Shown piece by piece: positions 48,288-48,370 of a DNA stretch of 64,000 nucleotides. Made by a program: the position numbers and the translations under genes. The stretch is from assembly GCF_003334255.1 (NCBI RefSeq), contig NZ_QOWU01000006.1; one strand, 5' to 3'. Each line of letters starts with the position of its first letter. Position 1 is the stretch's first letter. The notes beneath the pieces were generated by a model. It did not search any database. It worked only from the letters and a program-made list of their open reading frames with translations, and had not been told where the DNA came from. Source of the DNA: Escherichia coli. GTDB taxonomy: Bacteria; Pseudomonadota; Gammaproteobacteria; Enterobacterales; Enterobacteriaceae.

Positions 48288-48330
48288 AGATCACGTCAAA
48301 ATAAGAAGAGGGAAGACAACATTAGCAAGG

Positions 48331-48350
48331 TTGTGTACATTTGTACACAA
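48331..48350. promoter_or_regulatory. RcdA-box-like palindrome in the divergent rcdA / ybjJ-ybjI promoter region
   Basis: TTGTGTACA-tt-TGTACACAA: 9-bp perfect inverted arms, 21 nt upstream of the rcdA ATG and 44 nt upstream of the ybjJ start. Confidence 0.6.
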
Positions 48351-48370
48351 TTGCAGAGAGAGGAAATGAC

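Follow-up and report, generated by a model that had tools for sequence, protein, structure and literature searches.

The palindrome between rcdA and ybjJ is the known RcdA operator and forms a near-invariant module with the predicted ybjJ promoter across Enterobacteriaceae

Which protein recognizes the palindrome in the short spacer between the divergent rcdA and ybjJ genes of Escherichia coli, and what does its binding do to the genes on either side? The question was raised by a 64-kb stretch of E. coli DNA, referred to here as the window. In the window, rcdA (ybjK; 48371..48907, plus strand, ATG at 48371-48373) encodes a 178-aa TetR-family regulator and is transcribed away from ybjJ (47079..48287, minus strand, start codon at 48287-48285, cat on the plus strand), which encodes a 402-aa MFS transporter and is the first gene of the ybjJI operon. 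The second gene, ybjI (46264..47079, minus strand), encodes a 271-aa Cof-type HAD-IIB phosphatase, which is annotated as 5-amino-6-(5-phospho-D-ribitylamino)uracil phosphatase and scores 193 bits against TIGR00099, over the cutoff of 137 bits. Many complete E. coli chromosomes match the locus (3.2 kb) at 100% identity, and in them the genes are annotated as ybjI, ybjJ, rcdA, ybjH and ybjL. RcdA contains the Pfam domains TetR_N (residues 13-59) and TetR_C_31 (residues 86-176), and YbjJ matches MFS_1; in NCBIfam, no family scored above its cutoff for RcdA (the best was BetI, with 63 bits against a cutoff of 201 bits) or for YbjJ. The entries 5x5i, 7acl, 7acm and 7aco in the PDB are RcdA itself (full-length match, E ~5e-116), and other TetR-family structures match as well.

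The arrangement described by the first-pass annotation, a TetR-family regulator opposite an MFS transporter, is thus borne out by the domain assignments, and all 79 informative loci from Enterobacteriaceae show the same divergent orientation of rcdA and ybjJ. The spacer between them was correctly delimited as the 83 bp from 48288 to 48370, bounded by the ATG of ybjJ at 48287 and the ATG of rcdA at 48371. The TGATG junction between ybjJ and ybjI (47077..47081, minus strand) is also present as it had been noted: the stop codon TGA of ybjJ (47081-47079) and the ATG of ybjI (47079-47077) overlap by 1 nt, sharing the A at 47079, as can be read directly from the sequence. This junction is overlapping or abutting (-11 to 0 nt) in 65 of the 67 species with ybjI, which is consistent with co-translation of the two genes; the published Northern analysis likewise handles ybjJI as a single operon (PMC3535384).

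The palindrome itself occupies 48331..48350 and reads TTGTGTACA-tt-TGTACACAA, that is, two inverted RcdA boxes. Its 9-bp arms are perfect, as had been claimed, with TTGTGTACA at 48331-48339, tt at 48340-48341 and TGTACACAA at 48342-48350, and they stop at 9 bp, being flanked by g at 48330 and t at 48351. On the plus strand, the boxes can also be read as a direct repeat, 48331-48339 and 48341-48349, in a register of 10 bp. With up to three mismatches allowed, the 64-kb window contained a single copy of the palindrome, whereas dinucleotide shuffles predict 0.01. The consensus TTGTnnACA (TTGTnTACA) has three overlapping matches within 48331-48350 and none elsewhere in the window. Shuffled sequences give 7.8 matches to TTGTnnACA per 64 kb, so that the motif appears mildly under-represented away from the operator in the window.

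This palindrome has been known since 2012. The same sequence, TTGTGTACAttTGTACACAA, was reported by Shimada et al. (MicrobiologyOpen 1:381; PMC3535384), and the object described there for E. coli K-12 has the same sequence, spacer and genes as the one in the window, without any substantive difference. SELEX, EMSA and DNase I footprinting were all brought to bear on the site in that study. The ybjJ-rcdA spacer was repeatedly recovered by SELEX-clos and SELEX-chip, the ybjJ-rcdA probe was the one bound most strongly by RcdA in gel shifts, and DNase I footprinting revealed a single clear protection at low RcdA, where the RcdA box is palindromic (PMC3535384). The recognition core TTGTgtACA given in the first-pass annotation is close to the box defined in that work, although the published form is TTGTnnACA or TTGTnTACA (PMC3535384). 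Northern blots detected the ybjJI transcript only in the rcdA mutant, identifying RcdA as a repressor of ybjJI (PMC3535384). With lacZ fusions, ybjJ-lacZ increased in the rcdA mutant and rcdA-lacZ decreased markedly, which was termed "autogenous positive control"; in the wild type, rcdA mRNA and protein are abundant, and sulA was found to be a further target of RcdA (PMC3535384).

Accordingly, the suggestion that RcdA gates ybjJ-ybjI agrees with published Northern and lacZ data, in which ybjJI is derepressed in the rcdA mutant, and the experiments proposed for the locus (EMSA, footprinting and lacZ fusions in the wild type and the rcdA mutant) were all carried out in 2012 with an outcome in favor of this reading (PMC3535384). 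What was wrong is the notion that local control lies beyond the known distal targets, because ybjJ-rcdA has been the strongest known RcdA target since 2012 (PMC3535384). PMC5934670 quotes a RegulonDB target list that lacks ybjJ and rcdA, although both genes appear among the SELEX targets of the same table; this omission may be the reason why the local target looked new. The original observation is therefore correct, but neither the operator and the protein bound to it nor the effects on ybjJI and rcdA were new.

The first-pass annotation had also called for a search for the palindrome elsewhere in the genome, and we carried this out on 5426 complete E. coli genomes. The operator was found in 5423 of them (30-nt query, E <= 10), with a median of one place per genome. 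At this threshold, a bare 20-nt exact match, for which we estimated an E value of ~0.4, would still be reportable. About 1037 genomes fell into the band of 90-95% identity over the 30-nt site. The one strain from this band that we examined, the UPEC strain U15A, has AC instead of GT at 48330-48331, which shortens the arms from 9 to 8 bp and agrees with the variability of the outermost operator position between species described below. The search also bears on a discrepancy within the 2012 paper: the body text puts the palindrome in a 72-bp tfaX-appY fragment, whereas the legend of Fig. 1 and the footprint section say ybjJ-rcdA (PMC3535384). We found no match to the palindrome in the tfaX-appY region of K-12, even with three mismatches. 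Together with the single place per genome, this result indicates that the placement in the body text is a slip and that the Fig. 1 legend is right.

Taken together, we are highly confident that 48331-48350 is the primary, highest-affinity RcdA operator, and that RcdA binding there shuts off ybjJ-ybjI and influences the rcdA promoter. Binding, repression of ybjJI and autoregulation have been shown in the literature, and it is the mechanism, occlusion of the ybjJ promoter, that we infer here. The spacer contains a second conserved block, GACAACAyTAGCAA (48315..48328). Its minus-strand sequence is TTGCTArTGTTGTC, within which we predict an extended -10 element, TGnTAnnGT (here TGcTAatGT, from 48327 down to 48319 on the minus strand). 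In the 69 short spacers in which the columns of this block were scored, the TG (48327-48326), the -12T (48324), the -11A (48323) and the -7T (48319) are 100% conserved. A hexamer TGTACA (48342..48347, minus strand), located 17 bp upstream of the predicted -10 and invariant across the loci, is the predicted -35 element of ybjJ. Since the predicted hexamers match the consensus at only four of six positions (-35) and three of six positions (-10), such a promoter would be dependent on the extended TG. A simple sigma-70 consensus scanner called no promoter in the 83-bp spacer, and our literature search found no published transcription start for ybjJ or rcdA. Within the 5' end of rcdA, the minus strand carries a sigma-70-like TTCACC-17-GATAAT at 48407-48435 together with a terminator-like stem with a T-run; antisense promoter-like and terminator-like matches in rcdA are as frequent as by chance (0.4 expected each).

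From these positions, the operator is predicted to overlap the -35 element and the spacer of a conserved extended -10 promoter of ybjJ. An RcdA dimer, with further molecules joining cooperatively, would bind the two inverted TTGTGTACA boxes, the centers of which are 11 bp apart and would thus lie on the same face of the helix. The right half-site, with TGTACA as its inner part, is likely the ybjJ -35 element, and the left half-site would fall within the 17-bp promoter spacer. RcdA bound to the palindrome would then cover both, and RNA polymerase could be excluded by simple occlusion. The exporter is freed by the loss of RcdA or, presumably, by the binding of a small organic-cation ligand.

To see which parts of this arrangement are retained, we compared 80 Enterobacteriaceae loci, one genome per species, with RcdA identities of 67-98%; divergence of the two genes was counted in the 79 loci with enough flanking sequence. 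A 15-bp core, GTGTACATTTGTACA (48333..48347), is identical in 79 of the 80 species loci, including the central TTT, and the other columns of the spacer are mostly just 30-65% conserved. The outer positions of the operator are variable, T48331 being conserved at 65% and C48348 (C or T) at 51%, and the exact 20-mer is present in 25 of the 80 species only. The perfect 9-bp arms are therefore not conserved as such, which is a point against the operator model. The distance from the palindrome to the ATG of ybjJ is 42-46 nt, with a single locus at 52 nt, whereas the distance to the start of rcdA ranges from 19 to 120 nt, being 19-23 nt in most species. The longer distances of 53-120 nt were found in Salmonella enterica arizonae/diarizonae, several Klebsiella (the oxytoca group, K. 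indica and an uncultured Klebsiella), Raoultella and Enterobacter sp. 10-1. The near-constant distance to ybjJ and the variable distance to rcdA show that the operator is anchored to the ybjJ side. In the 11 loci with long ybjJ-rcdA spacers (118-185 bp compared with the usual ~85 bp), the extra DNA directly adjoins the palindrome, toward rcdA, and is not the same from genus to genus.

The gene content downstream of ybjJ also varies. In 11 informative species, namely members of Kosakonia and Phytobacter together with Klebsiella indica and Enterobacter sp. Bisph1, ybjI is missing downstream of ybjJ, and rcdA, the operator and ybjJ are intact. The conserved regulatory pair is thus rcdA and ybjJ, with ybjI as an accessory passenger. 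The comparative data, namely the core, the spacing, the loss of ybjI and the copy number, are what is new in this work, and they identify the operator and the predicted ybjJ promoter as a near-invariant module. Such conservation of the operator and the predicted promoter across Enterobacteriaceae argues that local control of the pump may be the core function of RcdA.

The same data bear on two other explanations of the palindrome. It could act mainly as an RNA hairpin in the leader of rcdA or ybjJ, either as a 5' stabilizing stem-loop or as an attenuator. Both strands do fold into a stem of 8-9 bp (-13.5 and -12.7 kcal/mol, with z-scores of -4.5 and -5.4), and the frequent change C48348T would retain a G-U pair in the plus-strand RNA. 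However, folding of this kind is expected from any DNA palindrome, and a two-fold protein site would just as readily give the symmetric changes at the ends (A...T). Moreover, across the 80 species the stem is no more invariant than the four central loop bases, and informative covariation is absent. The predicted ybjJ promoter would leave the palindrome out of the ybjJ mRNA, and the stem has no U-tract following it. The published footprint, EMSA and genetics already account for the site (PMC3535384), and we regard a primary role as a hairpin as very improbable.

Even less probable, to a degree that we consider negligible, is that the palindrome serves another regulator, for example as a LexA-like box, or is a functionless product of chance. 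GTGT-N8-ACAC superficially resembles the LexA box CTGT-N8-ACAG, and sulA is also an RcdA target (PMC3535384), yet a direct RcdA footprint on the site has been published (PMC3535384). We rejected a LexA (SOS) box at 48333-48348 because GTGT-N8-ACAC is mismatched at both of the defining outer C/G positions, and a chance palindrome given that 0.01 copies are expected and that 79 of the 80 species have the same core.

The effect of the RcdA operator on rcdA itself is more difficult to explain. The first-pass annotation held that RcdA autoregulates, and it does so; the published sign is positive (PMC3535384), not the autorepression suggested by the classic TetR layout. The palindrome ends 20 nt before the ATG of rcdA, and its center is ~30 nt from the ATG, so that any rcdA promoter within the spacer must overlap the operator, and any effect of RcdA on rcdA would be exerted from inside that promoter. 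The best conserved candidate on the plus strand combines nnGACA (48313-48318), a 17-bp spacer and TACATT (48336-48341), which is the sole invariant TAnnnT on the plus strand of the spacer and lies inside the operator. The published positive autoregulation is hard to reconcile with this geometry, which does not fit class I or class II activation, and the positive effect needs another explanation. One candidate is relief of competition between the two overlapping face-to-face promoters. An alternative is classic autorepression by RcdA, the apparent activation being indirect or a reporter artefact, caused for example by the derepressed ybjJ promoter occluding the rcdA promoter. The operator cannot occupy a class I or class II activator position for any transcription start that includes the Shine-Dalgarno sequence at 48360-48363, and the candidate -10 element TACATT, with nnGACA 17 bp upstream, would be covered by bound RcdA. 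Overlapping divergent promoters of this kind are typical of TetR/TetA-type loci, which we counted in favor of autorepression. On the other hand, nnGACA is not retained in the loci of the Salmonella subspecies, expression of the genomic rcdA-lacZ fusion was markedly lower in the rcdA mutant, the wild type contains abundant rcdA mRNA and protein, and none of the published experiments shows autorepression. We therefore consider autorepression possible but doubtful.

A broader explanation would combine these observations with the comparative data. According to this explanation, the ybjJ operator, and not csgD or the other distal sites, is the ancestral primary job of RcdA across Enterobacteriaceae; the reported "activation" of rcdA is relieved promoter competition; and the locus is an organic-cation-responsive module for efflux, or for "dephosphorylate and export". 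The ybjJ promoter, with its predicted -35 element in the right half-site, and the rcdA promoter, with its candidate -10 element TACATT in the left half-site, would overlap face to face, and RcdA bound at the operator would shut off the stronger ybjJ promoter and so permit transcription of rcdA. We regard this combined explanation as unlikely.

Loss-of-function mutations in rcdA recur in ionic-liquid-tolerant E. coli, in which rcdA has been described as the regulator of the YbjJ pump, and ybjJ is induced 3-4 fold by [C2mim]Cl. RegulonDB gives RcdA-Tris and RcdA-TMAO as inactive forms, and structures of RcdA with Tris and TMAO exist; the affinity for TMAO is weak, with a Kd of 7 mM. The locus is of practical relevance, since ionic-liquid tolerance in engineered E. 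coli is based on the RcdA-YbjJ pair.

The organization of the locus resembles that of TetR-tetO, QacR-qacA and AcrR-acrAB in having a TetR-family regulator with a helix-turn-helix domain, a divergent transporter and a palindromic operator in a short spacer, together with the overlap with the promoter region that we infer here. As in TetR/TetA-type systems, the pump is derepressed upon loss of the regulator. Unlike in those modules, RcdA is reported to activate its own promoter, where negative autoregulation is usual although not universal; RcdA is also strongly cooperative, spreads along DNA and has ~30-40 further genomic targets, and the spacer contains a single operator instead of two. Another parallel is EilR-eilO-EilA of Enterobacter lignolyticus (Jungle Express; PMC6127294), in which a TetR-family regulator is likewise divergent from an MFS pump and the palindromic operator has a 2-bp center. 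The EilA pump confers tolerance to imidazolium ionic liquids, and YbjJ and RcdA play an analogous role in E. coli. The operators differ, however: eilO, AAAGTTGGACACGTGTCCAACTTT, occurs twice per spacer (PMC6127294) and is unrelated in sequence to the RcdA operator. Orthology of RcdA and EilR was rejected because the match between RcdA and EilR (5vl9) is confined to the helix-turn-helix (E = 1.5e-4), which makes the two proteins analogues and not orthologues.

A few individual loci from the comparison deserve mention. In Kluyvera genomosp. 3 YDC799 and Citrobacter amalonaticus AUH_CA_2023_1, ybjJ is apparently disrupted (early stop or frameshift, with a broken alignment) and the operator is kept. 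The rcdA-ybjJ-ybjI locus on a contig named 'Chryseobacterium sp. 18061' is of the typical Enterobacteriaceae kind, its spacer being laid out as in 'Citrobacter sp. 18056', which comes from the same study; the Chryseobacterium assembly is probably mislabelled or contaminated. Finally, the rcdA orthologues of Citrobacter start with GTG, compared with ATG in Escherichia.
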